This document shows positions 1-60,400 of a DNA stretch of 64,000 nucleotides, piece after piece. The stretch comes from Blasia pusilla (Eukaryota). Under the pieces are notes generated by a model, which saw only the letters and a program-made list of their open reading frames with translations, ran no database searches and was not told the DNA's origin. The stretch lies in contig CM114271.1 in the NCBI GenBank assembly GCA_050084515.1, positions 14,570,001 through 14,634,000 of the forward strand, read 5' to 3'. Both the position numbers and the translations under genes were made by a program. How positions within the stretch are numbered: the first letter of the stretch is position 1; each line of letters starts with the position of its first letter.

Positions 1-545
1 TGAGCACCGCTCCTAACCCCAACATACTCCAATCCGAAAGGATCTATCCCCCAAATTGTCTTATTCCTGTCCTCCACTCGGATGGGCAATTGATGATAGT
101 CAGCGCGGAGATCCAAACAACTGAAGATCCTTGCATACCCCACTGCATCAAAGATCTCCTCGGGAGTAGGCATAGCAAAGCGATCGACCTTCGTATGCCG
201 ATTGATAAGATGGTAATCCCCACACGTCCACCTATCGGTCTATTGGCCATGCATGTCCTTCTTCACCGGCATAATTGTGGCACATGCATACTCTCCAAGC
301 AATCTCCACACAAGTCCAAAGTCAACCAAGTCTCGACTCCTACTCTAAATCAAGGCTCGCTACATGCCAGAATATGTGGAGGGTCGTCGAAAGATTGGAG
401 TATCACTATCCAACTCGATCCGAATACCTGGACACTTCATTGTACCCAAGTCGTGCATACTATATACAAAAAAGTCCTTGAATCTCCACAAGAACTGCAA
501 CACTCGTCTCCTCTCCGCTCTTGTCAACCTAGGACCTATCACCGA
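1..545 (-). pseudogene. Ty3/Gypsy reverse transcriptase, N-terminal part (stops and frameshifts)
   Basis: GIRIELDSDTPIFRRP, then YACATIMPVKKDMHGQ*TDRWTCGDYHLINRHTKVDRFAMPTP, then ARIFSCLDLRADYHQLPI. These match the conserved Gypsy RT motifs xKKD..R.C.DYR.LN and LDL..gYHQ. Confidence 0.88.
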
Positions 546-834
546 CTCCCAAGTTTCTCTCGTGACCTATGGAGAATCGGAGGGTGGTGGTTGCTAATTG
601 GAAACCTCTAGAGCAACAACATGCGCTCCCAACTCAGAGGCCAAATCTCTAGGGACTCCACTATGTCTTGCATCAACGAAATGAACTCCCGTCTCTCTAT
701 GCTCTCGTGATATGTCCCATGAAGTCCATGGATGCCTCTCCATCACCATTGCGCCCCCAGCCAGTGTCTCGCCCATCTCGGTAGACGTTGTGCTACAAAG
801 TGGATGTAATGTCACAGATGCCTCTCGCATCCGT

Positions 835-1815
835 TGTTGCTCAGCCAAACCAAGACTAAACACCCAAGTAAGACACTTCAGGTCCATAGTCTGACCCAAC
901 ACTTGTTTACGGGATGCCTCTGCCATCATAGGCACCATCGTTGTACCTCTAGAGAACCCCATAGCTTGCACTTGCTCGTGAGCATTGGGCTCCATCAGTG
1001 TACTTTCTTGTTCATGCCATATCATGCTTGGTCCTAGCTCCGACGAAAAGCATGAGATGATGGAAAACTCACCAACATAGGAAATGTTGCCCTTTGCTGG
1101 CCCACCCGATTGGCCACTGCCAACTATGGTACATCATCACCAGTAACAACTTGAGATCTCCGCCTTGGATCCAAGATCGCATCCACTATAAGTAGTGATA
1201 GTCTCTGGACTCCATTGTAAGCCCACCTTAGCAACTTGGATGGTAAAAGGTTCATCCACCACAATCGTGGAAGGTGTGCGCACAATCCAACACTCGCCGC
1301 ATCCAACATCACCGCCAATCCTATCCACGACCGCACTTGATGTACACTTTCCATCACTCAGGCTTGCGTGTGACCTAACAATGGGTCATTCTCTAAAATG
1401 TAGGTTGGAGAACATCGCTAGGTAGTCTACCAGTGTCGAAGAACTCGCAACATCTCCCAAAACATGGCCAACCTCGGGTCTTGCAAACCAAGTCCTCGAA
1501 CCGCCAAAGAATGACCCTAACATGGCCACCCTTCCACCACTAGGTGTATTAGACCAGCCCTATCCAGATCTAGTGCCCCCAACAACAAAATGTTGGCTGG
1601 AAATACATATTGATATCCCTTGACTGTAGACATTGGCAATAACGGAGGATACTGCAGGACTAGTTTCGACACATGATGTAATGAGATTCTACGTGCAGTC
1701 TCATCTCTTTCAAGATACAAGTACTGATGTACTTGTACTCTGGCCTACAACAATGCAGCCAATGATGTACTAATCCCTCCAAAGAGATCCAGTATACGTA
1801 CACTCTCCTCCGGAT
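835..1815 (-). pseudogene. Retrotransposon-encoded C5-cytosine DNA methyltransferase catalytic domain (pseudogenised)
   Basis: Motifs in canonical order: I VRILDLFGGIST (~1770-1803), II YLERDETARR, IV LVVEGWPC*G (catalytic PC, ~1515-1545), V LQDPR, VI YILENDP (~1383-1403), VIII AHLPRLWWMN (~1250-1285), IX-X EPNAHEQVQAMGF...RKQVLGQTMD (~880-995). Confidence 0.88.
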
Positions 1816-2189
1816 ATTGCCACACAATCAGTGTGGTGTACAAGGGTGTCAACGTCTCCACTCCTAGAGCACGTGGTAACTCTGTCCCGTCTCACTCTAG
1901 AGCATAAACTCGGCTCCACGCTTGCCTCATGAGCTCGTCTACTCTCCTCTGCAAATTGATGCTCGTTCCCCAAAAGCTGAAGAAGTGTCGCCAACAAATG
2001 TAGCCACGCTCGTCATTGCATGTCACTCCTCAAGACTATCCTCTACACGAATATCCTCTACATCGCCGTTCTCCTCCAATAAATCTCCAAGCCAACAGAA
2101 TGTGCCACAATAAGCAGCAACTGTTGTGGTCGACCCTTGGAGTGAACCATCAAGTCTCCTTGCATACTACACGGGTAGTTGATTGGCTC

Positions 2190-2700
2190 GTCCCTCACTT
2201 GATTGCCAACCTAGTCAATAGGATGTTGTCTCCTCCCAAAAGTCAAGTGTGAACCCTAGAGGATACAATGCAGTTGCCCCTACCAAAACATCATAAGACT
2301 CGGTCGGTATCACAACCACTCGCATCCGCACCATCGCACTATCCGTAGGATGATCAGGCTGAATCCTCACTACAATCTCATCGCGAGTCATGAATTGTGT
2401 CGGGGATGTGCCTCCCAGTGAAGTCTGAATCAAGAATGGACATGGAGTGATCTCACACTTCCGCAATCCCATTGCTACACATGCCGCCTTCCCTAACATA
2501 AGGGTTTGTGCTCCTGAATCAAGTAGCACTCTCTACGGTCGATACACGACTCCGGATGGACCAACCAACTGAAAAACTCCATCTTGGTTTTCCAAGACAA
2601 CAACTCTTGGTGAGACGGTTGCACGCTCTATTGCTGGTCTAGCTGGAAACTCCGCCACTTTAGCCGCTGCTACATGCCAACTCTCTGTAGACCTCATGGC
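2190..2700 (-). pseudogene. Retropepsin (aspartic protease) of the Gypsy element
   Basis: VLLDSGAQTLMLG (DSG active site) ... YDVLVGATALYPLGFTLDF (D-x-L-x-G motif); ORF 2215..2529. Confidence 0.85.
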
Positions 2701-2706
2701 GAGTCT

Positions 2707-4639: not shown

Positions 4640-6270
4640 CTAAAGATTGACGTTCAAGGATAGTAGGGGCGCGACAACACTCCTCAAAGGCCGTAGATGG
4701 GGTCCGAAGAGCCTTCGACAATATGAAAGATTGGGGAAGTCTAGCTTGTCTGCCAGCTTCTCCCCTATGGGGATCCAACTTCACATCGGATCCTCGTGGC
4801 TCAAAAGCTCTCACTGTGTCTCTCGTAACCATTGCATCGGCATCCACTTGTGCGTTGTTGCACAAAAATCCCATACCTCCTAGATCTCCCACCATATCCT
4901 AGGCTTGAGCAGATCTAGAAGTTGACGTGCCCCATGAACCTGATGTAGATGCCTGCTTGGCCGTCATCACCTGAAGGCGTTGCTCCAACTGAACAATCCT
5001 TGCCAAAGTTGCCTCTGATGTAAGTGATGCACTTGCTCTGGCAGGTGGTGGGGTCCTACCTCCACCATGTCCTCGACCTCCTACACCTCGGCCTCTACCA
5101 CGTCCAGGTCCTTGACCTCCCTCTAGGCGCAGCTCGGGGTGGAGCTCGAAACATCTCTCGCGTGTTTTGCCCATATCTCTGGCAATGATCACACTAAGTT
5201 AAGGGTGGTCTCCCCTAGGCCGTCTCACATACAGTTCATGGTGTTGCTTGCAATCCACTCTACTATTTACAATCTCGCTCACGATGTGATCCTCCACACG
5301 TCCAACAAGAAATACCTGAGCCTTGTTGCCCAACATATGACTAAATTGATCGTGGTCCTAGCTCCCGATATCCTCATGTAGCCCTTGATCCCATGACTCT
5401 ATCTCGACTAGTGCGCTGTGGTATTGATGGAGACACCGTCACTCATGTCGTCTCCTTCAAAGATGACGTGCCTATCGTCAAAACTCTCTCCTCAAGTACG
5501 TTGAGCTCAATCCACTCTGCCAACAAAAATACAGACTTGAGAGTAGGCAAACCAACATGTAAGAGAGTTGCATCTCGCACTCTCTTGCAAAATTCTCGGT
5601 CTAGCATCGCATACCAAAATTGAATCGCTCGCACCTCCGTCACATCGTGAGTCATTGTAATCAATCGTCAAAGCCGTGCATAGGCCTCTCAAAGACCCTC
5701 CCCCGCTCTCCGTTGAAACTCATGAATTGACTCTAGCTTGTCGGTCCTCATCCCCTCGTAGTTCCTCCCCAACTCTTGGAAGAACTCAACCAACGGGTTG
5801 AACGCGGGTGGTATACGGCTGGTCACACTCGTAAGACTCCGGTCGACAACTCCTCGAAGTGTCTCCTCCATGCGGTTAGTGGGTGCTATTGTAGGCGCCA
5901 CATCATACATCGCACGCCCTATGAGGGACACATATCCTGGAGACCAAAATAATCTCCACGCCTCGATCTCTACCTCATGGAGAATCCAAAAGTCGTGATA
6001 ATCATCCACGGGAGGGCCCTACAGATGCTCAAAAAGTCCCTTCCATGCCATAACGGGGTCGAATCTCTATTGGTTCTGCATCCTCTATGCATCACACCAA
6101 CTATCAAATTCCTCCATAAAATCATCCAACTCGATGGTTTCCACCTTGAGACTTATCGGGGTCCCCTCATGGACCCATACATATCGCGATCGTTCATGTC
6201 CTACAACAACGGTGTGGCGACACTCGTTGGCCTCTCCAGTAACTCAAAATCCATTGACGTTACCTCAGGA
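4640..6270 (-). pseudogene. Gag of the DNMT-bearing Gypsy element
   Basis: Capsid-like segment KLESIHEFQRRAGE, zinc knuckle CWTCGGSHRERDC (~5268-5310), second knuckle remnant RERCFELHPEL, and a GRGRGRG low-complexity tract. Confidence 0.75.
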
Positions 6271-21169: not shown

Positions 21170-24100
21170 GGAGTATTCCTCAACAACAATCATGGGCGAG
21201 AAGCTAGATAGAAAGAATTACAATATCTGGAAGTTTTGCATTTAAAAATTTCTCATGGGTCAAGAACTATGGGAGCTTGTCACAAGTGATAAGGCCTAGC
21301 CAGAAGGTGCTTCAAGAGACTTGAATGTTCGCGCTTGGAACAAACGCGTAAGTCAAGTAATCCACTACATTTCAATAACGATCAATTCGCCAATGATAGG
21401 TCACATTCAAGATGTTGATATTCCGAAGGAGGCGTGGGATGCATTGGAAAAGTTGTTCCAGACATCTATAAAGGTCAAAAAGCTTCAATTGAAACAACAA
21501 TGGAACGAAGTGAGAAAAGGATCATAGAGCATCAATGATTATATCAAACATATTGTTGATGAGTTGAATAGCATTGGAGTGATAATAGAAGACGATGATA
21601 TGATTTTATTCCCTCTTCAAGGCCTTCCAAAGGATTACAAGTCCTTTGAGACTTTTATCTCTATGAGAGAGAAGTATCCAACCTTTCAAGAATTAGTTCC
21701 TCTATTGATCAATGAAGAGATGCGCCTAGTAGGCAACGGTAGCTCGTCTAATTTGCAAGAGAGTGCACTATTTGGAGGTTATGGATCAAACAGAGGTAGA
21801 GGTCGTGGCATAAATTTCTGTGTTCGTGGTGGATATCAAGCATATGGAGGTAGAGGCACTCAATATAACGTCACACAATCAACTATGAATCAGTACCCCA
21901 CACAATCACAAGGTGATGATGGTGGAAACCGTTGGGGTTGAGATCAACAGCAGAGGGTCCTTGGATCTTGCAATTATTGTGGGATAAAGGGTCACTATGC
22001 ACATTTTTGCTTCAAGAAGAAGGCAGATATGAGAACAAGAGCCTTACAATAACAAAACTATATGGAGCAAGAACACCAAGAGCAATACGAAGAACAACAA
22101 TATTCACACACGAAGAATCTCTTAGTAATGACTCATCATATGGGAGCAATGGTCAAGAAAGACTCGACAGCAGATTGGTACATTGACTCTTGTGCATCAA
22201 ATCACATGACTTCACAAGCTAAATGGTTCACTCATTTGGAGCCGGTGAAAGATCTTGCAAGTGTGCTCACAGGAGATGACACTCAACATCATATCACGTA
22301 TATCGGTAAAGTTCCAATAACATCAGATGATCTTTGTGCTCTTGGAAATCTTCACTATGTTCCTACCATTGCTAGAAACCTGATCTCTGTAGGACGGATA
22401 GTAGAACAGGGTTATCAAGTGAAGTTCAACGTAGATGGTTGTTTCATTGAAACAATGGATGACTAGACTACGATAGCCAAAGGAACTATATCTGACAAAA
22501 TGTTCAAATTAGATGTTTCTATGCCAAAAATTCAAACAATTATGTGTGGTCAAATCGGCCAACAAGTCACAGATCTAAATATGCGGCATAAAAAAATTGG
22601 ACATATGAATCTTCAAAGATTACAAAGTTTTTCATCATCTAATATAATAGTAGGACTCCCTAAACTACCGAGTCCTGCTACGTTAGAGATATGTCCTGCT
22701 TGCCAATTTGGAAAACAAGCTAGATTTCCTTTTCCAAAGCAAGGTAGAAGAGCATCCAAGATATTGGAGTTGATCCACAATGTTGTGTGGACATCATCAT
22801 AACATAATCTTAGTGGTTGCAAGTACTTTGTTTCATTTATTGGTGACTTCTCTAGGTATATATGGACATACTTTATGAAAGCCAAGTCAAAGGTATTCTC
22901 AGTGTTCCAAACATTTAGAGTTATAGTAGAGAAGCAGATTGGAGAACACATTCTGAAATTGCGTTGTGATGGAGGAGGAGAGTATTCTTTCAATAGAGTT
23001 TGATGACTATTTACGTCAGAATGACATCCAACGTCAAGTGACTTGCCGTTACACTCCACAAAAAAATGGAGTGGCTGAGAGGAAGAATCAATATATTGCT
23101 GAAGCGGCACGAGCTATGCTGAATGAGAAGAACATGCCTGAGGTCTATTTGGCAGAGGCTGTAGCATGTGTAGTCTTCTTAATCAACTAAACTCCAACAG
23201 CAAGAGTTCATGATAAAAATCCATTCGAATTCTTCATAGGAAGTAAAACTAAATTTTCCTTCTTGAAAGTATTTGGTTGTATTTGTTATGCTCATGTTCC
23301 TTCTTAAACATGTCAGAAGTTAGACCCCACGTCTGAAAGATGTATCTTCATCGGCTATGCTGATGGAACTAAGGGATATAAGTGCTACATTCCATCCTCT
23401 AGGCAGCTTATTAATAGTCGGCATGTTGTCTTTGATGAGCTAAAGTCATAGTATGTTCCATCTGAGCCTATTCCACCTCTAAACTCGTCTATTGAGAGGG
23501 ATAATATGATTGTAAACCAATAGACATTGTCTTCAACTTCCCCAAGTACTAGTGCAGGATTAAGAGAGGTCATACTTTCATCAATTTAAATTTGTGGGTC
23601 CATGGACGGGAAGAGTACATATTCAATCTGTTGACACTAGTCAGAGCTTGAGTCAGATATTAGAGGCATCTACCTCTGAACAATAACTTCGTAGATCAAG
23701 CAGAGTTACACATCCAGTTCATAGATTCATAAATGAAGGTTTCCTTCCGACACATCATGCATATATGATGACTATCCTTCAAGAACAGGAGTCGAGATAT
23801 TTTGTAGAAGTTGCAAGTAAAGTCGAATGGATTGAAGCTATGGAGGAAGAGCTTACTGCAGTAAGACATGAACAAACATGGGAGTTGGTTGATATACCTT
23901 TCGATAAGGAAGCTATTGGTTGCAAATGGGTTTACAAAATCAAGTGCAATCAAGATGATACAATTAACAAATACAAAGCGTGATTGGTGGCTAAGGGCTA
24001 TACACAACAATATGGTATCAATTATGAGGAAACATTTAGCCCTGTAATAAAGATGGCGACTACGAGAATAATGGTTGCAGTTATAGTAAGTAAGAAGTGG

Positions 24101-25346
24101 AGATTCCATCACATGGACGTCAAGAATGCCTTTTTGAATGGAGATCTGTACGAGGAGGTATATATGACTCAACCACCTGGATATGAGCATCCCAAGTTTC
24201 CATTTCGCGTATGTAGGTTGAAGAAAGCTCTATACAGGCTCAAACAAGCTCCAAGAGCTTGGTATGGCAAGATTACATACGTCCTACAAGAGTTGAGTTT
24301 TAGGGTATGTGATTCTGACTTCTCGTTATATGTCTTGAGAGGACAAGATCATACGGTTCTCATTGTGTCATATGTTGACGATCTCCTGATTACTGGGAGT
24401 ACTGAAGAAATTGTACAACAAGTCAAGCTTAACTTACAAGCAGAATTTGATATATATGAAGGACTTGGGAGAAGTCAAGTACTTCCTTAGTATTGAGTTT
24501 ATTAAGGTTGGAGAGAGCATGTGGTTACTACAACGACAATATGCTCTTCATATGCTTTCAAAATATGATATGACGGCTTGTAAGCCAATCTCTACACCGT
24601 TGGACCAGAGCGTGAAGCTAAGAGTGGATGAAGGAGAGTTGCTTGCAGATTCTAATATGTACATGCGCATGGTTGGAAGTTTAATCTATCTAACTATAAC
24701 CAAACCTGATTTGAGTGATGTTGTTGGCCTAGTGAGTCAATTTATGCAAGCATCTCGGAAACCTCACCTTGATGCTGTGAGGAGGATTATGCGGTATGTA
24801 AAATTCTCTATTCAATTCGGGCTTCAATTTGAACTTTCTCCGAGTTTTCAATTACATGGATTTACAGATGTTGATTGGGGAGGAAGCGTGTCCGATCGAC
24901 ACTCCGCCTCTAGTTATTTATTTATTTTGGGAAGCGCAGTTATAAGTTGGGCTTCAAAGAAGCAACCTACATTTGCTTTATCTTCAACAGAGGCCGAGTA
25001 TAGAGGAGCAACCAATGCAGCATGTGAGGCGGTGTGGCTTCATCGATTACTTGTTGAGATTGGTGGTATTAGTAACTTAGGACCTAGTGTAATATATGCA
25101 GAAAATATTAGTATCATCAAGCTTGCTAATAACCTTGTGTTTCATACTCGTACAAAGTATGTTGAGGTGCATTATCATTTTATCAGAGAGAAAGTGTTTG
25201 TAGGAGAAATAGATCTTGTGTACATAGGTACAGATCAACAAATTGCTGACATCTTTACAAAAGCATTGTCGAGAGATAAGTTTGAGATGTTTAGAAATGA
25301 TTTAGGCATTAGAGATATCGATATGAGCTTTAGGGGGGAGTATTGA
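21170..25346 (+). pseudogene. Copia gag-pol (gag, PR, IN, RT, RNase H) with stops and frameshifts
   Basis: Knuckle CNYCGIKGHYAHFC, protease WYIDSCASNHM, integrase YTPQKNGVAERKN, RT HMDVKNAFLNG and YVDDLL, RNase H SSTEAEY...RTKYVEVHYHFIRE. Confidence 0.95.
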
Positions 25347-44814: not shown

Positions 44815-47800
44815 TGTTGTCGTGGGCTTCCCACCCACGCGACCTTTTCACTCCCACGCTGAGCGACGTCAGTCATTGGCGTCCCATGGAAATGGGGTCC
44901 CCGGGAAATTTAAGTGCGAATAGAATAATACTTAGTAAAATTGAATTTCATAACCCAACCAATCATTATGATCCGAACCCTAAACCCGATCACCCTTCCT
45001 TGGGAATACAGCAAGCGACTTGATTGCCGTCCACTTGCTGCTTTTTTTAACGTTTATGTGGAGGGAAAGGTTAGTACCCTCGACAAGTCCTATTCCCATG
45101 CGGTGAAGTACTTAGTAGGTCGTGTGAGTGACCCGACCTCCGCTAAATTTGGGATTTTTTTTCTTACCTTGGGGGAGCGTTTAGGCGACTCCTTGTTTTT
45201 TTAATAGTTATGGTTTCACTCGTCAAGAGTGGACTATTGCAAATGATTTGGCTTCGACGGACACGTTGGCGGGAATTTGGGTAGCCATTCATGGCCTTGC
45301 ACATATTCATCTTCGGGTTAAGCCATGGAGGATGAGAGTTGAGTTAAGTGGTGAGGGAGATTTAAGCAAAAACGAAAGCACCGCTCGGATGCGAAAACAC
45401 CTCCTGTTGTTCTACACCGGGAGAAGTTGCCCATTGTGCTACAATCTCCTGCACAATAGTAAGGAGAGAGATTAAACCTTATTTTACAATCAAATTTTAG
45501 AGAGGGTTCATGGTTAACTAACCCAATCTCGCGTTGGAAAACCTGAGGATGAATAGGCACGAGGATTCATGGTCGTAAGTCGAAGGATGGGGAAACCTTG
45601 GAGTTATTGTCATAACGAAGTCTAGACTAAAGTGGTCGTAAGACTAGGGATGGGCATGAATCTTCAAACTCTCTCAAGGCACTTGTGGGCAAGGGATGAG
45701 TTTGTGAAAGTAAGGTTAATTAAGGCGAGCACAAGATCCAAGAGGCATGTGTTGGGATCAAGGGGCACGTTCACTCACACATGGTGGGATGACAATAAGG
45801 GAGGATCTCGTCCAGGTCATGGGAAAGAACCTTGGACTAGTCAAGACGTTAATGAAACCTTGAGATTAGTTGAAGAGGATGTGAATAGAGGCAAGATAAA
45901 CCATGAAATGTCAAGTTGTGGAATACACAAACGTAGGAATGATGGCTGGTGGAGATTTGGGAGAATTGAGATGGTTAGGACTGGCTATTAAACTAAATCC
46001 AATAACCGTATGAGCCCCACTAGAATCTGGGAATCAAGGCTCGTGCTTAGGTTGAGGGCCATTAGCAATGGCCGGAGATTAGGGTGACATAGGAATGGTG
46101 AGCGTTATGATAACCCCAAAATAATATAGAGGGTCGATCTCTCTATCCCAAGGATATTATTCAGGGAGCAACTTGATGCATTAGCCTCATCAAGGGTAAG
46201 TGAGCAAAATCTTGGTTAAGAGTTAAGGATAAACCTCCACAAGGATAGATGTTAGATATTGTCATGTCTCTTGTAATAAAACAATGAATATTCGTAGAAC
46301 ATATTCAAGGAAATCAAAAGCCCATCTCAAGAGGTTGAGGATGACCTAGAAAGGACTATAATAACTTAAGTGTTCATGTCGTCGCCTATATATTTTTGGC
46401 TCATTTGGAGCTATATTGAGGAATTGATCATTTTGGATACATTCCCTATTTTAAGAAGAGTTGATTTTCCATTAAGGGAAAGTGATCCTTGATTTACTAT
46501 CAAGGGTCACAAGTCATAAGGGGAAAGGAAAAGGGGTATACCCAAGGAGAGAGATTAGAAGCTCATTCTCTCTTTTGTTGAATCTCCTTCCATGATGGAG
46601 AGGAATTATGATCCTTCTTGTCTTGCAAGTAATCCAAGCCTCTCGTTAGGAGAGTGGATTTAGAGAGAGAGCGAGAGTTGTGATCCCCAAATTTACAAAG
46701 GGAGAATTAGAGCTCTACAATTACGGAGTTTTGGAGCACGAGCTTGGTGTCAACTTTGGTTTTGCAAGTTGGGGACCATGTTTCCTATTCATTGGCTCAT
46801 GAGGGTGCTCATAGGAGCGAGAGCTACTTAATTCACAATTCCTATTAGAGGATCTTTTGTGCATTACCAATCTGCACATACGCTCTTGAATTTTCTTCAA
46901 AATTTGAGTATGGGGAGTGATCTACGATAGAAGGGCTTCTATAAGAACTTGGAACCTTGCTATTTTTTATATTTACGGGTTTGAGTTTTGTGTGGAAGAA
47001 ATCAACGTGGAACCAATGCCAAACAAAATTTTAAATTCCAATAACAAGGTGGTTGTGATAGCCCCACGAGAATGGCAACCGATTTGTGGTCAAATTTCAA
47101 ATCAACAAGTTGTTTGGTTGATATTGTGCACGAATCTTTGATCTATTGTATCACAAACTTAGCATTCTTATTGGAACTCCAATATGATCATGATGGGTGG
47201 TGTTTGTATCACAGGCTATCTTACATCCACCAAAAATTTGGCATTGGTTTAGGGTTTAGGGTAATAAAGTTTGTTTTAGGGGTAATAAAGTTTAAAAAAT
47301 AATTGAGGAAAGCAAGTAAATTTGGTTGTTTAGGGAGAAAGGGAGTAAAACAAAAAATTTGTGGGATTCAACTCCTTTTAAAAAATGGTTACCTTCACTA
47401 TAACAGATTTAGTGAATTGATGCATTTTCAGCTGATAGTTGAGATAAAAAGAAGAAGAAGGTAGGATGGATTTAGTTAGTTTACCCCTTTTTAAGAAGAT
47501 ATTGAATTTTATAAAAGAAAGGTAGGGGGATTTAGTGAGTTGAGCCCTTTCTTAAGGGGGAATCTAGTTGACCTAGGGTCAACTCGATTAGGGGGGACAT
47601 TTAAGTGAGGCCTTCATTGGCTTGAGTACGTATGACATGGGGATGGCATGCTTATTGAAGTGTTTTAGTTGCCCACCACATCATGTGAGCATGGAGATGG
47701 TATTAAGCTTACCTCATGTTTTTAGATAGTTATGGTGGATATGATGGATATACTCTTAGAACTTATGCTTGAGCCTTCTAGGCAGGCTTCAGCAACTACA

Positions 47801-48950
47801 GAGAAATTCTCTATTTAGCTAGTTTTGGAGGTGGAATTTATTGTCTGCGGTTTTTTTGTGGATTCAAGAGCGCAACCCTTCAAGTTAGGGAAGGTAGGAT
47901 TTGAGAATTTAGACCTAACTTAGATGTATATTAAGCATCGTTCTTTCAAGATTCACACATCATTGGCTTGAGCTAATACAATGAAATTCATCACCCAAGA
48001 TAAAGTAGTGGTGAGGCTTAGACCAAGACATCCAACCAATGAGTTAGTGATTGTCGTAGAGTCTATGCTCTAATTCTCCTAGTGTCACATCGGAGCTCTC
48101 CCTAACTTGAGCTTTGCAAGCGGAAGACTTAGTTGGAGTCCAAAAGACTCAACTGGTTGAGCGTTTGGTAAGTAGCTAAGAAGCCACCAAAGACTAATCA
48201 AAGCGAGTCTTCCCAAGTACGTAGTGTCTCCCTAGGGGGACTCTTCCCTAAGCCTTGACCAATCTCCCCAAGTTGCTCATCTAAACCAAAGCGCGTCGAT
48301 TAATTCCGCAAGGTGCGTCGCTTAGCTAAAACTTGAAATACGACCAAACACGCATCACACTTAGTTCATGGTTCAAGGGCTTGAATGGGTAGAGAGAGAG
48401 TGTGTCTTCCCCTATAGGTACTTTTGGGTTTCTACGAGGGTACCCCACCTTCTCCATTGTTCCCCTCGTGCATTTGATTTTGGCCCTCAACCCAAACATG
48501 GTTTGCAATTCCATTAACCAACGTTTAACTATTTATACATTAAGATGGTCGAGTTGAAGCTTCTTGCAATTTTTGCTACTCTTGGATTCCAAAATGCATC
48601 TTAGATCTCAGACGTGAGTTTCATGTCTCATAGCTAAGGCCCGCCTTGACTCTTCATTTGGCATCTCATGGTTGACTTGTCACCCTTTACGTTTCGCAAC
48701 AAGTCTCATGGCGTCTCGCCCCTCTTGACTACTCATGCATTACTTACTTCTCATCCTTAACTTGGCGTTTGGCTCCAAGGTCTAAAACCTTACTTCCCTT
48801 GGCTTTGTCCGCACGAGTGAAAGAGAGCCCAAGGAGAAAAAGTTTGAGTATTTCAAAGCTTCAAAAAGAGTGGCACATGTCAATTACCTACAAATCGAAA
48901 AGGATAGATGTCAATAAGGAGAGATGGCACTCCTATAAGGGCACTCTCCC
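44815..48950. mobile_element. Degraded LTR-retroelement-like sequence
   Basis: Abrupt start at TGTTG after a GC-rich block. CpG-poor and stop-riddled, with LTR-like texture similar to 3800-4640. No clear domain or partner LTR identified. Confidence 0.35.
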
Positions 48951-50449
48951 ATAATAATAATATATATGAGGATCTTGCAACGTTTGCAAAAGCACCAATC
49001 TTGTTCTCTAGCTTATATTCTTAAGAATAAAATGTTGTTGGGTGACTCTCACACATAAGTGGTGAGGAGTGTACACCAAGTTTATCCATGGATCAAACCA
49101 AGAATATTTTTGGATATGGTGAATTTAGGTTCACTTGCACGCCACCTATACCTTTAATTAAAAAAATTGATGCCACATGAGATTTTGAAGAGGACGTATG
49201 CGAGAGTGGAGAAACCCTCCCATTGGTTGGATAATTCCATTTTGGATCTAGATCATTGATCACACGTAGTGAGGCATGACGATCAACCTCTATTGACATT
49301 GGTCAACAAGGTTAGCATGCTATGGGCACACACTACTATATTTAAAAAAATTGCAAGTGCCAACAGCCATAAACCATTCGCAACAAAATGGCTACATAAA
49401 GGTAAGAAAATTGCAAATTTATGAGTGTGGTAATGCAACATAATTACATGACTATGATTTCACACTTCGCCCCTACTTCACAACTTGGAAGTGTCGTATT
49501 ATTAAACTCGCAAGATGGTCACAATGACTTGCAAATCAATTACAACACAATAAAAAATAGCCACAACACAACTGCCTTGAACTTGCACTTGCCTTGAAAA
49601 GAGCATCTAACTTATGAGTATGTATAGTGGCAAATGAGTTGCAAAAACACAATGGCAACGTATTTGCAAAGTAGTGGTTTCTTGCCATCTCAAACTAGTT
49701 TTTTCTGTTTTGGGGGGCTCTATTTGGACTCATATTTTGGTCTATGAAACACATTTTTGAGAGAGGAGGGGGGGGAGGGGAGGAGGAATATGTTACCTTC
49801 CAATTATTTCTTAAGGATTGATTTTATTTTACTCCTTCAATTCAACATTTTTGAATAGAAACATAGAAGAAAATGAGGTTCACTTAACTTCACTTATCAA
49901 CATGTCCCTCAATAGAAAAGAAAATATTGTCTTTTAGTGGGATTTTAAAGCAAAGTTTAGAATTAGCTACACTATAGAAAGAAAATGGTTGCTAGGTGAA
50001 AAGAGAAGTGTTAGAAAGTTTGGAGGAAAAGAAAAAATAAAGCTGATTGGAGGCAAAAGAGGAATTTATGGCCAAGAATTATGTGATGCGACTCACACAG
50101 TAGTCGCAATTTACAAGTTCCAACACTCACGAAGTAGTTGTGAGTTGCAACTTTATTGTGAATCTCGTCATTCTTACTTTGCAAGTCCATGCATTCACAC
50201 TGTGTGACTTCATGGTGACTTGTAGTTGCAATGTCACATGTGGCTACCTTACTGCTTTCTTGTGATTGCTATGACTTGCAAATAGCTTTCGAGTGTTGAG
50301 AATCCCAAAACATTAGAGACTCAAAAAATTATTGTTAGAAAAAAATATGTGGCACAACTTGCATTTTCAAATTAAAGTTGCAAAGAAGCCATAAAGTTAT
50401 AAATTGGACTTGCAAATCAGTGGCAAGCAAAAGAAAATCCATTGTAGTG

Positions 50450-53400
50450 AGAACTATTGGCGTTGGTGAGTTTTCATGCCTCTTATGTGTAGAAGGAAGG
50501 CAATATTTTCTTGGTTTAAGATGATTAGGCACACAAATTAATGGAGCCCAACATTGATGAATGAGAGCGCGTGATGGGATTTCCCACAAGTTTGACAACA
50601 ATATTATTTTTGTCAAAGGTGTCTTAATGCAATGTTCTAGGTCAACCAATGGAATTGAATTTCTTGACAAAGATTGTGAGCATATGAATAGAGAAAAGTT
50701 GAATCCAATTATGAGATATAATCTCAAGGGACTTGTTAGACCTTTTACTATTGAGGTGATATAGGTAGTTATTGGGGGTTAGACTAGAGGAGATCGATAG
50801 ATCAAAGATGATTGGGAGAGATATCCATGGACTTCTTGGGATCAGATGTTGGTGGATCTAGAGATGGGAGTCATTGCACTTAGCATGGTGCATGGTTCTA
50901 CATACCAAGGAGCACTAGAAGGATAGATATATAAATTAATTATAGATGATAAATTGAGTAACATTGTTACTAACAGGGTTGCACAATAGAAGGCCATCCG
51001 GCCCACCCCTATGTCAAAGAAATATTATTTTAGTTATGATGGAAACTTAGGAGCTAAATAGCGGGCATAATTTGATTAGAGAAGATCAACATCAAGTAGA
51101 TCCCTTCATAGGGAGTTACAAGAGTTATATTTCATTTAATATGCATCATTTGGGTACACCGAAGGGTCAAATAATCCGTATTGATTTGTCTATGGGTACA
51201 TCAATATTTTAACAACCCAACATGTATAGTGAGTGATATGGAGAGAGAGCCCTAATTTAAAGTTAGAGCTAAGGCTTAAATGAGGTAAGATAAGTGGAGA
51301 TCTCATATGGATGTTATACATGTGTCATACTCACATCTGCCAAAAAGTATGTGCATGGAAATTGGACTGATTGGAAAATATATCAATATATAAATTGACA
51401 GAGAAAGCTTGATAGATATATAATTCCCACTCTTGATTATGAAGAGATCTTAAATATTATTTGGCATGCAAAGGTATTTGGCTCATTTATTAGATCTTTG
51501 AGCTAGATAACATCAAATTCTTATTAGAGTGGAAGACAAATAAAAGACAATATTTTGGAGCACCATTGATCCTCATGGGAAGGATTGTTTGTATCGATGG
51601 AGGCTCTTACTATTTGGATTAAAGAATGCCCCAACAGAGTTCTATAGAGTCATGGTAGGATCTTTGTAGTTTTGGACTTTGTTAGATATTACATTAATGA
51701 TATTGTAGTCTTTAGCCCTATAGTTGAGATACATAAGCAACATCTTGCGGAGATACTTCAACACTTATAATTATATGGGCTAAAGCTATATCTAGGCAAA
51801 TGCACGTTCCGTTGTGGCCGGATTGAGTAGTTGGATCATATGTACCAAGGTGGACTTGGTATTCAACAGATGGAGATAGAGGCTCTCTCATGGATACCTA
51901 TAGATATGGATCGAGTTGGTGTGCTCATGTATGGGATTGGAGAACTTCTATCAACGTTACTTAAAGAGATCCAGTATAATTGCAAAGTCTCTTATCTTAT
52001 TGATGAACGTGAATGATGAGTAGAAATGGGGATATAGTTGAGATATCGATGTTACTTCCTCAGTAATCCATTTACTCTTATCATTGATCATATCAACCAC
52101 TAAAATGGTTGATGGAGTCCAATAAACTTACAAGAAATCTTGGCAAGTTTACTCCGTCATTACGCAATATAATTTCTAAGTGATATATCAATTAGGAAAA
52201 CTCAGCCAAGATGCATCTGTGTTGAGTTTTAACATATGGTAGAGTCAGCTAGATGCAAGTAGAGCTCGTTGGCATGATGAGAGTAATGAGGAGATAGTTC
52301 CTAAATGACAAGTATGCATAACCTTATTCGGGCTTGTTGCCCACAAAGGGCAATATCGCATCAACTCCGATATGAGGTCAGATGAAGAGTCCTTAGATCT
52401 TGAGGCTACAAAGAAGGTGATAGTAAGTGACATGCTAGGAGGATGGGATATTCTTGGAGTTCTTATATACGTACAACATAGTGGACATAATGGGTATGAG
52501 AGCAAGATTGGATCCTACAGGGAGTAAGATGATTCAACTGGCAGGGGATACATCCATATTTTATGAGTTTGGGAGGATGGTAGAATATGAATGATGCTTC
52601 ATCCTTCGTAAAGAGCCCAACCAATGCAACATGTCCACAAGGAGTTGGGATATTTTGGAATAAAATTGAGTGAAACATAGATGTAAGCATGTTCTCAATA
52701 AGCAAGGATGTTTACAAGAGACATATTTATGGCATTCAAAAACTTGGATATTGCACAACATTAAGACACATGTGTGGATGGACAAGGAGATTACAGATTT
52801 GCAATTTTTTGGTGTCATTTAGAAGACTATATCTACTTACAGTTAAACCTACAACATTGGATATTACAACAAAGTGCACTATCTTGAGAGTGAGTGAGGT
52901 ATTGCCATTTGGTGTTATATTTGTAGAAAGATATGATGGTGTAATTTGGAAATATTGTATGCATAATTATGCGTAATGTTATCTTCTTAATATTGGTATG
53001 ATAGGTGATCTAAGATGGGTAGTGGTACTTACAAGCTTGCAACGTATGTTGTTTCGATTAACGAGAGGTAAAACTATAATGCTAATTTATGATGGACTTT
53101 CAACAGGATGGCATATAGAAATTTTGATGCGACATTTTATTATAGTTCCTCAAGGATAATAGATGTATCCCAGATATGCATAAAATAGGCACCTAGACAC
53201 TTAGATTTGCTCAAGTGATATGGATGAAAGAAAGATGATTAACGATGAGGCCACATGAGCATCCAAGCATCTAAGCATCACATGCATAGAGGGTTATGTA
53301 TGAGGTAATCTCACAAATAGCTAGGTAGACATAGGTGGCTATGTAGAGTTAGATGGACCTAACCACCAATTATGGGTTGCTTGGAGATATTTTGGGAGTT

Positions 53401-53600
53401 GCTTACCTAGTGTTTTGTGTGTTTGATTAGTAACATCGATGTATGTGGTGTAGCAACGTGAATGCATACGATCATATGTTTTGTAACAAAATAGAGAGTG
53501 CCCATATGACACTTTAAGGAGACTAGAGGCCAAACGTAGTAGGCCAAGGATGACTTGATGAGGAATGACAGGGCAACTTAGAAATGCAAGTTTTCCCTAG
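50450..53600 (+). mobile_element. Second, older 5'-truncated copy of the DNMT-Gypsy family (DNMT C-terminus, RT, RNase H, integrase remnants)
   Basis: 50454-50686 reads LVSFHASYV*...LMEPNIDE*ERVMGFPT...NVLGQPMELNFLT (DNMT motifs IX-X). Then RYPWTSWD linker, RT AKKYVHGNWTD, FGLKNAP and YINDIVVFS (~51330-51800), and decayed RNase H/integrase sequence. Confidence 0.8.
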
Positions 53601-53858
53601 ATCTGGGCCCATTTGGAGTCTATTTGAGGAAGTGATTTCTTATTATATTCCAATGAATCTTGGTTTGGCCTATTAGAGTCCCCATCTCCTTTATTCATCC
53701 TTCTTTAATGGGAAATAATCAATTAATTATCCTTTCTTATATACTCCACTCTTCTTGTTTCTGTTTCTATCTCAATTTGTATTTGCATTAGACCATGTTT
53801 GCTTGTGTTTTGCATTCTTGAAATTGATTATTCACACTTTAACACTTTATTCAGTTAT

Positions 53859-54411
53859 TAACAAAAATTTAATAACTGAAACAATTAACTAATTTCCTAG
53901 CTTCCAATGTGAACCAATGGAGGATTTCTATGTTCTTTGGCCATAAATGTTGACTTCCATAATTTTTTTAACTAGCATATGCATACTTGTGCACATAAGA
54001 GGGATATAAATTCCTCAAAAAATCTTAACTTGTTAGAAAATATATCAAAAGGGAAATAAGATATATAAGTCCTACTCAATTGTAGAAAACTTTAAAGAAA
54101 GAAGAAAGAGAAAATTTGTTACATACAAAAAGACTTATGTTGCTAGAGGAACAAATTTTCTCTTTCTTCTTTCGTTAAAGTTTTCTACAATTGAGTAGGA
54201 CTTATATATCTTATTTCCCTTTTGATGTATTTTCTAACAAGTTAAGATTTTTTGAGGAATTTTTATCCCTCCTATGTGCACAAGTATGCATATGCTAGTT
54301 AAAAAAACTATGGAAGTCAACATCTATGGCCAAAGAACATAGAAATCCTCCATTGGTTCACATTGGAAGCTAGGAAATTAGTTAAATTTTTTAGTTATTA
54401 AATTTTTGTTA
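53859..54411. repeat. Near-perfect inverted repeat (262-bp arms, 29-nt loop)
   Basis: 53859-54120 is the reverse complement of 54150-54411 with only a few mismatches. Confidence 0.95.
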
Positions 54412-56284
54412 GTATGCTTACTTGGTAGGAGTAGTCAAATTGTAACGGCTTGAGAGCAACTTGGAGACCTAGATACATTATTCATGTGTATTTTCCTCCT
54501 AAGAACAAGTTTACCTTTTTTTTTGTTTGGAATTATGGATTAGAAAGGCATGTTTTAAGTTGCATACATAAGGACATTTGAAGCCATGTCAAAATAAAAT
54601 TTTAGGTATCTTTTGAGGTACTCATTTCCCCTATCCAAGCATTTATTCCAACTGAAAAGTATGGATAGTGAATTGGCTAATATATATCATGAATTGATGA
54701 ATAATGGTTTGCAATGTTTGATAAGTGATTGAGTAGAATGCTATCCTTTCACTTTCAGCCATGGATTTCTTTGTAAACCTCTAAGAATTTTCCATCATCT
54801 ATTGATCCAACCCTTGTACAAACAAGTTTATTGTCTAAACGATTTATTGAGAGGAGAGGAGAAAAGAGACTAGATCAAACCAGTTCAAGGGATTTAATAC
54901 AAATTCCTTCGATTGTGCCATTTGAGGCAAGGCATTATGATGGATAATCATAGATCTCATGCATTCAAGAAGTAGTAGGATTCTTCAGAATAACTCTCAT
55001 CAAGCTGCAGGTTCCATCCATACCTATTTTTTCATGGAATTTTAAAATTTAAAATCTATGTTATTAAACGAGAAAAGGGGAATTTTTTTCAAAGAGGAAA
55101 TGTGAAATATCATATTATCCCTTACGGAAAGAAAAGAAGATTATTAGGTAAATAAAACCGGTGACTACTTATAAATGGGACACATTATGAGATCATTTCT
55201 ATTGCAATTGAAAGAAATTAGTTTATTTAATTTAAGAAGAAAAATTTATAATAAACCAAGCTTCATAGCAAAATGATCAAATACTTCTTATCTTTCCTAG
55301 AGTTTGAATATTTTAGAATAAAGTTTACATGAAGTCAAAATTTAGTAAAACGAAATAGTTAAAGAAAGAGCAACACTAGACATAATTACTTATTCCCTTA
55401 AAACTTAACATAAGTTAATGGGATGCCAATGCTTTGCATTATGATATAGTGCCAACCTCACATTATATGCTAAACTATATGGAGTTGTTTGGGATGCATC
55501 AATCACGAGGTAATCAATCTTACAGTTTGTTGTCGACGGATTCACGTTAAGGACCTGGTCCCATGCGGTCGAGGTCGTCAGGACCCGGCCCCAAGGTCGC
55601 GGATGTTTGTTGGGATGATCGTTATCTAATGATCGACATTGTTGGGAACTCACTAAAATTCGTGCCCTTCGACACGAAGTTGGCGACCCTTTTACAACTA
55701 TTTCCTACCAACCGGAGCAGGCCGCATGGGACCGGCTAATAAGTACGAGTAGACTCAAGCCTCAGGACCTTGGGCTCATCTCAACTCGTGGACTGGTGGC
55801 AACATAAGGAAGGTTATTATCGGGACAGCATAAGGTAAGTGCGTGCAAGTTCGACGAAGGACGGAAAAGAGCGACTCATTGAGAGGGTAATCTTCTTTTC
55901 TGATCTTGCGTAGTATTGTAATCAAAAGATAAGATACGCTTTAACCGACAACAACGAGCATATTCACTTAGAAGTATCCATAAGTTCATAACTCACTCAC
56001 TGCGCAAAATTCGCTTCTTGTGCTATATTTATTTAGAATCTTATGTTCGTGGGAAGAAATAGAAAGATAATCTCATAATGGCCGCTCTGAGCTTCCAATT
56101 GGTGGAGGTACGGCGGACGCAGAATGGAACCCGCAATTATTGGCCGCTACCGAAATAGCGTAGAAGCGTTGTGTTTAGTGGAAGCGGCCTGCAGTCCTGC
56201 ACCACTTCCGCCACGCAACGCAACGTAACGGAACGGAACGGGAAAGAGAAAACCGGTCTGAAATAGATCGACGGTGTTTGGAAG

Positions 56285-57439: not shown

Positions 57440-60400
57440 GCCAATTCAAACACAGGTTTAACGAGTTACACGATTGATAACCTGAAACAAATCTGACAAA
57501 AACACGAGTGGTTGGTCAGACGTGAATGGACGACGAGGCGAGCGACTCCCCACCACCTCCGCACGACGTATCAATGCCAAGGCTTGTGCACGTTGTAAGG
57601 CCACTGAGATGCATTGCCGAAAATAAGTAGTAACTATCGAGAGAAAAGGACTACGGAAGGGGCAAGTTGATGATTCTCGAGGGAGTGGTGAGCACATGTT
57701 TTCAGGAAAGTATCAAAAGACACATGTAAATGACCGAATACTTCCATTGCAAATGGAATAAATCCATCAGTCGCATGTCTCACAACATAACTTAACTCCT
57801 TGATTCTTGCTGCAGCTTCGGCCGCCAAACCTTTGGTATGTGCGGCTCGACACACCAAGTCAGAACGTGTTGGATCAGCAACCACCACATCACCTAATGT
57901 TTGGAATCCACCTCGAAACATAACAAGATCCACTCTCCGACGAGAGGTTGCTTGTGTGGTTGAAGGTAGGACGTGGAGTTGCTCTTGCCCAACGGTGTAT
58001 CCTGGTGTACGAGCCACCGATGCTACCGCCTCTCTAATGACATTATGTGTGGCCGTTCGTTCTCCACCATGTGCACATCGGAGAATATGGATACCCTTGG
58101 CATCAATGGGATCCCTGCGTACACAATTCGGCACACATAAGAGAGAAGGATGGGGAAGTCCAAGATATAACCGCAAAGTTGTCGAGAATATACTTCGAGG
58201 AAGACGAAATGGAAGAATAAGAAGATTTGCAGTAAGCCACGCCCCCGCTCCGGTACCCTCACATGAACGTAGACGAGCTCGATTAGCGTCAGAGGATGCC
58301 TCGGAGAGAATGCTCAAAAAGTTGATTTGATATAGATTCTCGGAGATATGCTGTTGAAGTCGATCAAGCCCTTCCATAATCACTTCATTGAAAGGGGGTA
58401 GAATTGCTTATGTATCAAGAGGAGAAGAGCTCGTGCAGATCTCAGTTGTTGTTGAAATAACAAGTCCCCCTCCTCTACATGGGCGATATGATCCATCAAG
58501 ATAGGTGTATCTCCTTGGAGAAACCTTGAAGCCATAATCGGTGCTACCAACACCCAACTCCCAACTCCCCAAAAAGGCTGCGGGAGCAGATGCGACTGTG
58601 GAGGACAGTCACACCCCTCTAAAAGAAATAGGCAAGATAGCTTGTCGTGAAGCAAAGACACCATCCTCTCCCTCAAAGGTATTCGGGCCAAGAAGTTGAC
58701 CAAAAGTTGCCAAGATAGAAGCATCAAAAGAGGCCAACCGATGTAAGAACCTTGAAGTGGCAGGACAAGTGCGAAGAAGGTAGGAAGGATGTTGTAGACA
58801 ACATTGGGAGAGAATCCCATAAGCCAATTGGGAATCCCCTAGATAAGATAACAAATGAAGCCATTCCACGTCTTTCAAAAGGGCCTCATCCAAGAACTTT
58901 GAGACATAGTGGATGAAGCCAATTGGGACCCCAAGAACTCTAACCCCTTCAATGTAGATGGGAAAATCAGGAGTAGGTGGGGCATGAAGGAGACCATACT
59001 CCACATTTATTAGGTTGGACTTTAAGGTTTAAGAAAGAGAGTTGCTCCACGAAATGGGTATAAGCAGGAACCACTTCAGAAGGAGGACCTATAATGTGAG
59101 TGTCATCAGCAAAAGAAGGGAAAAGACAAGATGAAAATTCTTGCGTTGATGCTCGAAGGGCACAAAAATGGGCAATGGCAAAGACTGGGCCATCCATGGG
59201 ATCACCTTGACGTGTGCCACAAGCCGATTGTAGAATACTATATTCCCCAGAAGTAGCATGATGGGAATAGATAATGGGCGCATCATAGGCATAGAAGGAG
59301 CGAATAAATAGAATGAGGCTCGTGAGTTGTCCTCCTACAGAACGTAACTCCTAAAAGATGGCTGCACGAGAAACTGAATTGAATGTGTTAGCCACATCGA
59401 CTTGAATTGCTACCCAATCTGGATGAATATTAAGAGTGGAGTGAATTCCATTCACCACAACCTCACAACCTCCAGGATTTGCCACTCCAAATTGATGATG
59501 AAATAAGTGGGCACTAAAGTGAGGACGAAATTGCAAGCATAGGGATCGACTAACCAAGCGGTATAAAACCTCTCCAATAGCCAAAGGGCGCACACCTGAA
59601 GGAGGCTTATCCATAGCCAACAAACGACAAGCCCCTAAGAGCCTAGAGATAGAGAATGGGAGACGACTTGCCGCCATATGTGCACACACCTTATATAGAG
59701 AGACAAAGCCACTTGCTGAATCTGCTAGGATAAAGCAATTGCGAAGATGCTAAAAAACCATCCCTCATAGCCCGCTTGCTGATAAGCGAGGAGTATGCAG
59801 AAAAGCCCTTGTGAAAAGCTCCAAGTCAAGGTCCGTTGTATAGTCTTCCACAAAAGGTGGAGCATCGCCACTTGAAGGAGGATGAAGAGCTTCTAAGAGA
59901 GCCATATTTTCCGCACTTGGAACCATCGGAGAAAGAGGACCCAATGCTCGAGTTGCACGTGAAAACTCACCAACCTGCCCCAAAAGTAGATTTCGTTGAA
60001 GGCATTATTGTATTGAAGGCCTCCCATGATTGGCATGTTGAGTGGGATGAGCCGCAGCGAAGGCCTCTGCTCGAAGTACATGCTCATTCTGAAGATTCTT
60101 CCAATCCCCAGACATAAAGCGTTGAATACATGTGGAGGTTTCACGATGACCCGTTGCACCACCCCTTGGAGAGAGGACTAAAACCCATTGTGGGAAGAGT
60201 AATAGGAGATACCAAGAATTTATATCTGTGGGGTCATGCGCTAACCTTTCTAATGGGAAAAGCAAAGCTTGTTGGGTGATGGGGCATAGAGCAATAGGCA
60301 TGCGAGTGTAGAGTCTAGGATGAGGAAGACCTGGATGGAAAGAGCGAAGGAGATCAATTTGGCTTAACCAAGTCCAAGAAGTTGTTGTAGGAGTGCAATA

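Follow-up and report, generated by a model that had tools for sequence, protein, structure and literature searches.

Two decayed copies of a cytosine methyltransferase-bearing Gypsy retrotransposon in a 64-kb window of the Blasia pusilla genome

We analyzed a stretch of 64,000 nucleotides of the Blasia pusilla genome (assembly GCA_050084515.1, contig CM114271.1, positions 14,570,001 to 14,634,000 of the forward strand; hereafter, the window), in which two regions encode the degraded remains of Ty3/gypsy-type retrotransposon proteins with a cytosine methyltransferase (DNMT) domain inside Pol. The first region, copy 1, lies at 1-6081 on the minus strand, and the other, copy 2, lies at 47657-53174 on the plus strand. 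An earlier inspection of the letters (hereafter, the sequence-only reading) had claimed that positions 50450-53600 hold a second, divergent copy on the opposite strand, which retains the junction between the DNMT and the reverse transcriptase (RT), and that the DNMT is accordingly a family trait. All of the peptide strings on which that claim was based were located in the sequence, as follows (asterisks denote in-frame stops).

50538-50588, plus strand: LMEPNIDE*ERVMGFPT, copy 2
50634-50669, plus strand: VLGQPMELNFLT, copy 2
50819-50842, plus strand: RYPWTSWD, copy 2
51342-51371, plus strand: KKYVHGNWTD, copy 2
998-948, minus strand: LMEPNAHEQVQAMGFSR, copy 1
902-867, minus strand: VLGQTMDLKCLT, copy 1
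737-714, minus strand: RHPWTSWD, copy 1
263-234, minus strand: KKDMHGQ*TD, copy 1

We then ran tblastn with copy 1, translated in its three sense frames (minus strand of window 1-6500), against the window. The two copies were collinear over the protease (PR), the DNMT, the junction and the RT, with the following high-scoring segment pairs (HSPs).

Copy 1 2526-2329 against copy 2 47855-48052: protease, 36% identity, E = 7e-7
Copy 1 1450-1100 against copy 2 48966-49316: DNMT, 36% identity, E = 1.8e-13
Copy 1 998-852 against copy 2 50538-50684: DNMT C-terminal end, 41% identity, E = 1.6e-4
Copy 1 584-33 against copy 2 50994-51579: RT, 36-63% identity, E = 6.8e-19

The actual sequence gave 6 HSPs between the two copies at E < 1e-3, with a top score of 75.1 bits, and 0 of 100 dinucleotide-preserving shuffles of 47800-52300 gave an HSP at this threshold (maximum, 23.9 bits). 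No similarity between the copies was detected at the DNA level (self-blastn, E < 1e-6). These results confirm a second, divergent copy on the opposite strand that has kept the DNMT-to-RT junction. Its extent had to be revised, as the element begins approximately 2.8 kb earlier, with a protease from 47657, and its coding part stops at approximately 53174.

Copy 2 is composed of the following parts, in which A1 is an alignment of the relatives with the DNMT pieces of both window copies, and identifiers beginning with P denote related proteins.

47657..48070, plus strand: aspartic protease remnant (HSP with copy 1 at 47855-48052, E = 7e-7)
48703..49325, plus strand: N-terminal part of a putative Dnmt3-type methyltransferase, with a trace of motif I and motifs VI-VIII (only VI-VIII significant)
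49326..50445, plus strand: unrelated AT-rich insert of ~1.1 kb within the DNMT target-recognition region (A1)
50446..50700, plus strand: DNMT C-terminal part, motifs IX (EPNIDE*ERVMGF) and X (VLGQPMEL) (P0182 554-630, 45%, E = 2.6e-12)
50701..50996, plus strand: DNMT-RT junction proper, including the conserved RYPWTSWD (50819-50842)
50997..52032, plus strand: RT (P0186 13-308 against 51042-51929, 38%, E = 8e-38)
52033..52155, plus strand: RNase H remnant, last ~40 amino acids (aa) retained, ~87 aa lost at ~52033-52043
52156..52677, plus strand: RNase H-integrase spacer and first ~22 residues of the integrase zinc-binding domain (P0188 420-597 against 52156-52665, summed E = 1.5e-19)
52666..52695, plus strand: site of the integrase core deletion, ~236 aa including all of rve (comparison with P0189)
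52696..53174, plus strand: Pol C-terminal region with a decayed PHD finger at ~53043-53156 (P0194 967-1076, 40%, E = 5e-14)

The protease remnant matched P0183 at 47852-48040 (E = 7e-7) and P0181 at 47657-48070 (E = 0.017). The best-preserved DNMT segment of copy 2, at 48966-49316, was 39% identical to the Calypogeia protein P0182 (E = 1e-18), although KNK stands in place of the motif ENV and RxR is gone, and the motif I region at 48703-48846 left a weak collinear trace (E = 0.23). The sequences 'VNKxGxP' and 'ALPTLVS', which are approximately 5 residues apart in the relatives, are found at ~49300-49325 and ~50451-50490 in copy 2 according to A1. The insert that separates them contains many short TTGCAAA-type repeats; it has no clear terminal repeats, and neither terminal inverted repeats nor a target-site duplication could be assigned to it.

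The RT of copy 2 was matched by Pfam RVT_1 below the cut-off (20.9 bits, E = 3e-4). In 5 of the 5 relatives covering both flanks of the RNase H deletion (P0188, P0189, P0190, P0192 and P0195), the query jumped 86-87 residues over at most 12 bp of DNA; the RNase H domain itself corresponds to P0188 295-424 (Pfam). The start of the integrase zinc-binding domain reads HVHKELGYFGIK at 52600-52665. The alignment with P0189 reaches residue 637 at 52665 and picks up again at residue 874 at 52696, and rve is located at P0189 690-783. No Pfam match to rve or Integrase was obtained in three frames of 52200-53700, and hidden Markov models (HMMs) that we built from the integrase and RNase H of distant relatives gave marginal scores on copy 2 (E ~ 0.1-0.3, with ~0.1-0.2 for the integrase model at 52156-52677), because these domains suffered the deletions that the closer relatives revealed. 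Therefore, the sequence-only reading was mistaken in expecting an integrase domain at 52450-53500, where an rve search was null and just ~22 zinc-binding residues and the PHD region are left. The C-terminal region also matched P0193 (E = 4e-13) and P0190 (E = 1e-10). The PHD finger corresponds to P0194 1039-1083 (Pfam); most of its cysteine positions are substituted in copy 2, and Pfam PHD gave no match on the C-terminal stretch of this copy. Overall, copy 2 follows P0187-P0195 collinearly from the RT through the RNase H tail and the start of the integrase zinc finger to the PHD region. Approximately 0.7 kb downstream of its Pol end lies a near-perfect palindrome of 560 bp at 53856-54414 (93.6% self-complementary by self-blastn), which may be a foldback element or one resembling a miniature inverted-repeat transposable element.

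Copy 1, which is cut by the window edge, contains the following parts.

4695..6081, minus strand: gag (Marchantia P0184 103-466, E = 2e-50; Sphagnum P0185 18-377, E = 5e-54)
2026..2685, minus strand: aspartic protease with 3 in-frame stops (P0181 58-277, 49%)
1043..1975, minus strand: DNMT motifs I-VIII and target-recognition region, with 7 in-frame stops (P0182 255-567, 56% over 313 aa)
603..1040, minus strand: DNMT motifs IX-X and the junction with RHPWTSWD, past a frameshift (P0182 568-712, 47%; within the open reading frame (ORF) 594-1133)
3..593, minus strand: N-terminal part of the RT, cut by the window edge, with 4 in-frame stops (P0186, 63%; P0188, 66%)

A CX2CX4HX4C knuckle was seen in the translated gag frame, and the protease was matched by Pfam Asp_protease_2 below the cut-off (15.3 bits). 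The DNMT motifs of copy 1 read DLFGGIS, GWPC*G, ILEND and AHLPRLWW, and the frameshift falls at ~1041-1042. Gag and protease are separated by approximately 2 kb (2686-4694, minus strand), compared with ~70-100 aa in the relatives, and short matches to the pre-protease region of the relatives occur at 3393-3599. This gap probably represents one or two nested insertions.

To characterize the DNMT, we performed an exhaustive phmmer search using the DNMT frame of copy 1 (241 aa, with X at stops), which retrieved 739 representatives at E ≤ 1e-3 and 302 at E ≤ 1e-10; in many of them, an above-threshold DNA_methylase domain lies inside a long polyprotein. A word-indexed search of the 179-aa ORF against longer proteins had given no match, which is weak evidence; phmmer later recovered the family. 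When the frames of either copy were scanned whole with Pfam (2000-3000 aa, stops written as X), the outcome was no match or a single RVT_1 match short of the threshold; with shorter pieces, DNA_methylase, Asp_protease and RVT_1 were matched, in each case below threshold. In A1, motifs I (ELFGG), IV (GWPCQ), VI (LLEN), VIII (AHRLRxxWTN), IX (EPNxxERERAMGY) and X (LLGxxMD) appear in this order and are non-permuted. When the A1 profile was compared with the Protein Data Bank (PDB), DNMT3A ranked on top (E = 5.4e-23), followed by DNMT3C, DNMT3B, plant DRM and bacterial M.HhaI, and the alignment with DNMT3A extends through motifs IX and X (TEMERVFGFP...RQRLLGRSWSVPV). The profile comparison therefore assigns the domain to the Dnmt3-type C5 cytosine methyltransferases, and its motifs I-X follow one another in the usual order. 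Although DNMT3A, DNMT3B, DNMT3C and plant DRM are the best matches among solved structures and the motif order agrees with that of DNMT3, the element domain differs from these host enzymes in that it sits in a retrotransposon polyprotein, has no PWWP or ADD domain and is not permuted as DRM is.

The alignment with DNMT3A and A1 also changed the interpretation of the stretch LMEPN...MGF...VLGQ.M.L, which the sequence-only reading had taken for a linker and which actually comprises methyltransferase motifs IX and X. The real DNMT-RT junction follows motif X and carries the motif (R/E)(H/Y)PW(T/R)(S/T)W, as RHPWTSWD in copy 1, RYPWTSWD in copy 2, and KRHPWTS and EEHPWRTW in P0018 and P0182, respectively, both from Calypogeia. 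The intact P0182 of Calypogeia fissa reads DLFGGIS, AGWPCQGH, YILENV, AHRPRLWWTN, EPNADERERAMGF and VLGQAMD, and thus retains FGG, PCQ, ENV, RxR and motifs IX and X.

We further analyzed how the DNMT is placed in the related proteins, which come from Calypogeia, Sphagnum, Marchantia, Closterium, Klebsormidium and Mesostigma. Word-indexed searches identified the closest DNMT relatives in Calypogeia fissa (60% identity), Sphagnum troendelagicum (61%), Marchantia polymorpha (MARPO_0020s0163, 49%) and Sphagnum fallax (39%). Among the RT relatives, 5 of 10 matches, three of them from Calypogeia, showed 63-72% identity and the other 5 showed 41-51%; most contain RT, RNase H (RH) and integrase (IN), and four of these bear a C-terminal PHD finger. 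Pfam recognized RVT_1, RT_RNaseH, Integrase_H2C2 and rve in the relatives. The public relatives follow the order gag-PR-DNMT-RT-RH-IN. For example, P0043, from an ENA record, is a single open and intact protein of 2188 aa with zf-CCHC, PR, DNA_methylase, RVT_1, RNase H, Integrase_H2C2 and rve in succession, and the PR-DNMT-RT order is also found in the open polyprotein P0042. We take the family polyprotein to read gag-PR-DNMT-RT-RNase H-IN-PHD.

The 150 best representatives were classified using HMMs built from the relatives. The PR-DNMT and/or DNMT-RT adjacency seen in the window was found in 23 of these, with named members in Calypogeia fissa, Closterium spp., Klebsormidium nitens (GAQ93235.1) and Mesostigma viride. 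A second architecture, RT-RH-DNMT-IN, was found in 45, and DNMT alone in 82 (81 without any other domain match and 1 ambiguous row with DNMT and RH), many of which are short fragments. The second architecture, which may carry PHD or Tudor at its C-terminus, is represented, for example, by P0015, P0023, P0029, P0033 and P0036, and its members form one clade whether the tree is built from the DNMT or the RT.

In the RT tree, copies 1 and 2 form a pair (support 90/84) inside a clade (96/98) shared with elements of Calypogeia and Sphagnum, and the RH-DNMT-IN class stands apart as a clade of its own (96/93). The DNMT tree joins the window copies to Calypogeia P0018 (94) and unites all 45 RH-DNMT-IN rows in a single clade (SH-aLRT 89), outside which the resolution is poor. 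The two trees agree in placing the window copies with bryophyte relatives and the RH-DNMT-IN class in a single clade, and the DNMT therefore appears to travel with the element and to be inherited with it. The monophyly of the second architecture suggests that the position of the DNMT within Pol changed once. Taken together, the 23 representatives with the adjacency among the best 150, the intact P0043 and the agreement between the trees bear out the claim that the DNMT is a family trait. The proposed domain order DNMT-RT-RH-IN is found in the relatives and agrees with the collinear order of copy 2, although copy 2 itself lacks the integrase core.

Both copies are dead and are relics of the family rather than working members, as the catalytic residues and the open frame fail in both of them: copy 1 has PC*G and END for ENV, and copy 2 has KNK and has lost RxR. 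In copy 1, we counted 15 in-frame stops per 877 codons (12 TAG, 3 TGA and no TAA) in addition to the frameshift. Copy 2 has 30 stops per 815 aligned codons, a near-neutral stop density, besides one insertion and two deletions. The GC content of copy 2 is 0.36-0.42, compared with 0.485 for copy 1; it has 1.4-7.4 CWG sites per kb, compared with 17.8 per kb for the window, and a CpG observed/expected ratio of 0.35-0.55 in its coding parts and 0.29 in the nested insert, compared with 0.69. Several stops of copy 1 occur where the relatives have Q or R, such as PCQ to PC* and ALDR to ALE*, which fits C-to-T changes at CAG (CHG context) and CGA. Deamination of methylated cytosines in a silenced element could account for the high AT content of copy 2, for the CG and CWG sites that it has lost, and for stops of the types CAG to TAG and CGA to TGA. 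Because 12 of the 15 stops of copy 1 are TAG, we also considered whether TAG might be read as a sense codon and rejected this possibility: the number of ORFs of at least 200 aa in the window was 24, 26 and 48 when TAG, TAA and TGA, respectively, were read as sense, so that TAG brought no special gain, and the TGA stops and the frameshift of copy 1 would persist in any case. One stop occupies the same alignment column in both copies, namely GHTQA*VMESVHQV at 1360 on the minus strand (TGA) and GDSHT*VVRSVHQV at 49056 on the plus strand (TAA). The relatives have R (P0018) or Q (P0182) in this column, and the shared stop reflects either a common mutable codon or coincidence.

These results are best explained if 47657-53174 on the plus strand is an old, non-functional insertion of a Ty3/gypsy long terminal repeat (LTR) retrotransposon of the streptophyte Gypsy-DNMT3 kind and 1-6081 on the minus strand is a younger, also dead, member of the same bryophyte lineage; we assign this explanation a probability of approximately 0.92. 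Homology, domain order, lesions and the affinity to Dnmt3 are established here. In live members of the family, the DNMT, either released from Pol or acting within it, may methylate the new cDNA or the insertion site, as extrapolated from de Mendoza et al. 2018 (PMC5890265), and we suggest that the PHD finger might add a histone-reading step to targeting.

Several observations weigh against this explanation. The ends of the elements are undefined, as neither copy yielded LTRs or terminal repeats of another kind: direct repeats of at least 60 nt were absent from 40000-64000, and self-blastn detected no repeat pair flanking either copy, of which copy 1 exceeds the window and copy 2 is highly decayed. 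Comparison with the relatives found no gag upstream of the copy 2 protease, and the N-terminal half of the copy 2 DNMT (motifs I-IV) is a non-significant trace (E = 0.23). Pfam DNA_methylase scored 15.1 bits on copy 1 (E = 0.016; cut-off, 22) and gave no match on copy 2. The label 'bryophyte' derives solely from those named proteins that are most similar. As an account of the types of stops, deamination is weak; the TAG excess of copy 1 is partly compositional, because TAA is rare in all frames of its sense strand (4, compared with 53 TAG and 49 TGA). In addition, DNMT activity is only putative for this Gypsy type.

We considered three other explanations. If the DNMT stretch were a host DNMT3 pseudogene or a separate insertion beside an ordinary Gypsy element, its adjacency to Pol would be accidental, and the rearrangements of copy 2 (the 1.1-kb insertion and two deletions), together with the additional ~2 kb that copy 1 has between gag and PR, would be in keeping with such a history. 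However, PR, DNMT, junction and RT follow in the same order and on the same strand in both copies and in 23 of the best 150 representatives, from at least 5 named genera, and single open polyproteins such as P0043, the conserved junction motif and the congruent RT and DNMT trees all argue against an accident, which we consider hardly credible. It is considerably less far-fetched, but still unlikely, that the two copies belong to subfamilies that split anciently, and that their 36-41% identity reflects a deep lineage split rather than the age of copy 2. The copies have no DNA similarity to each other, and in the DNMT tree P0018 pairs with copy 1 (SH-aLRT 80), leaving copy 2 outside the pair; nevertheless, the DNMT row of copy 2 spans just 42% of the columns of that alignment, and the RT tree pairs both copies, with most of the distance between them on the end branch of copy 2 (1.26, compared with 0.36 for copy 1). 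The odd letter composition of copy 2 and its near-neutral density of stops (30 per 815 codons) also speak against a deep split. With most of the divergence on its own long branch, copy 2 looks more like an old insertion that has decayed than like the product of a deep subfamily split.

The third alternative concerns the family rather than the two copies: its DNMT might be a catalytically dead fold with a structural use, for example in binding DNA or chromatin. Indeed, PMC5890265 reports that the DNMT of the K. nitens Gypsy produced no methylation in yeast, but its authors call this result inconclusive, as human DNMT3B was likewise inactive there. Moreover, intact relatives retain the S-adenosylmethionine-binding FxGxG, the catalytic PCQ, ENV, RxR and motifs IX and X (P0182 and the A1 consensus), and we therefore regard a dead fold as improbable. 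An old insertion (copy 2) and a younger one (copy 1) of a single DNMT-bearing Gypsy lineage remain our preferred explanation.

As for the deeper history of this lineage, we tentatively propose, with less than even confidence, that a Dnmt3 was captured once by a Gypsy element early in the green lineage and inherited from the Mesostigma, Klebsormidium and Closterium lines into liverworts and mosses, where it is paired with a C-terminal PHD reader instead of a chromodomain, and that a single move of the DNMT from between PR and RT to between RH and IN founded the chlorophyte branch. If this proposal were correct, the DNMT would be among the oldest continuously retained 'stolen' epigenetic enzymes of any transposon, and a module of writer plus reader would have been brought into land plants.

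The window, whose sequence looks eukaryotic and typical of a plant, contains further features apart from the two copies. A Ty1/copia-type RT and RNase H are encoded at 23984-25346 on the plus strand by two long ORFs (168 and 318 aa), which are far better preserved than the DNMT-Gypsy copies. Two clusters of imperfect inverted repeats or palindromes occur at 13496-13831 and 16008-16394 (69-81% identical, up to 311 bp). Several long ORFs on the minus strand at 7560-10256 (225-311 aa) and 57634-58407 (257 aa) are possibly other transposon genes.

Retrotransposons that carry a de novo cytosine methyltransferase have been a known curiosity since 2018; two dead copies add no mechanism. According to de Mendoza et al. 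(PMC5890265), a Gypsy element with a Dnmt3-type DNMT was described in that year from Klebsormidium as KnitGypsy-Dnmt3. The term 'Gypsy-DNMT3' is used for streptophytes in a 2026 preprint (10.64898/2026.05.21.726589), and a streptophyte Gypsy-DNMT3 is also referred to in PMC12344493. The window copies share the characters of this kind. They have a Ty3/gypsy-type Pol with the integrase after RT-RNase H, as judged from the remnants in copy 2 and from the relatives (copy 1 ends within the RT); in both copies, the DNMT is embedded in the coding region of Pol, with which it is collinear and shares the strand; and, as judged from the profile and the motif order, this DNMT is of the non-rearranged Dnmt3 type and is akin to a K. 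nitens protein. This protein, GAQ93235.1 (P0090), matched the window DNMT with 30% identity (E = 5.7e-19) and has the PR-DNMT order according to our HMMs; we used it as a K. nitens relative, not as a confirmed copy of the published KnitGypsy-Dnmt3.

By its text description, KnitGypsy-Dnmt3 resembles the window elements in that its Pol is of the LTR Gypsy type and the Pol ORF encloses a Dnmt3-type DNMT whose motifs are not rearranged. However, the nearest relatives of the window copies are from bryophytes (Calypogeia, Sphagnum and Marchantia), not from charophyte algae, K. nitens falls into another sub-clade of the DNMT tree, the two window copies are both dead relics, and the relatives of the window elements further differ in bearing a C-terminal PHD finger. 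The legend of Fig. 4c of PMC5890265 describes the terminal repeats of KnitGypsy-Dnmt3 as DIRS-like, with the arrangement A-coding-B-A-B. The chlorophyte Gypsy elements with RH-DNMT-IN, such as the 'pol' of Scenedesmus sp. PABB004 (P0033), share a homologous DNMT and a Gypsy RT-RH-IN, and they often end in a PHD and/or Tudor domain, but have the order RT-RH-DNMT-IN instead of PR-DNMT-RT and form their own clade in the DNMT and RT trees. SymbioDIRS-Dnmt3 and SymbioLINE-Dnmt of Symbiodinium are likewise retrotransposons that bear a cytosine methyltransferase, and the DIRS type has its Dnmt3 inside Pol; they differ in belonging to the DIRS class with a tyrosine recombinase and to the LINE class, and their acquisition of the DNMT is described as independent (PMC5890265). 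No tyrosine recombinase was seen in the window copies. In contrast to chromoviruses, the relatives have a PHD finger instead of a Chromo domain (Pfam), and copy 2 retains the decayed PHD region.

In our literature search, we found no paper that names bryophyte or Closterium members, the wording there being 'charophytes' or 'streptophytes'. These proteins are already public as unnamed products, and the records place the same PR-DNMT-RT Gypsy lineage in the gene sets of Calypogeia, Sphagnum and Marchantia, with a chlorophyte sister group that carries the DNMT elsewhere in Pol. Because Marchantia is a tractable model, the function of an element-borne DNMT becomes testable in a land plant. The window copies belong to the already known streptophyte Gypsy-DNMT3 kind; what is modestly new is its occurrence in bryophytes and the PHD finger at the C-terminus.

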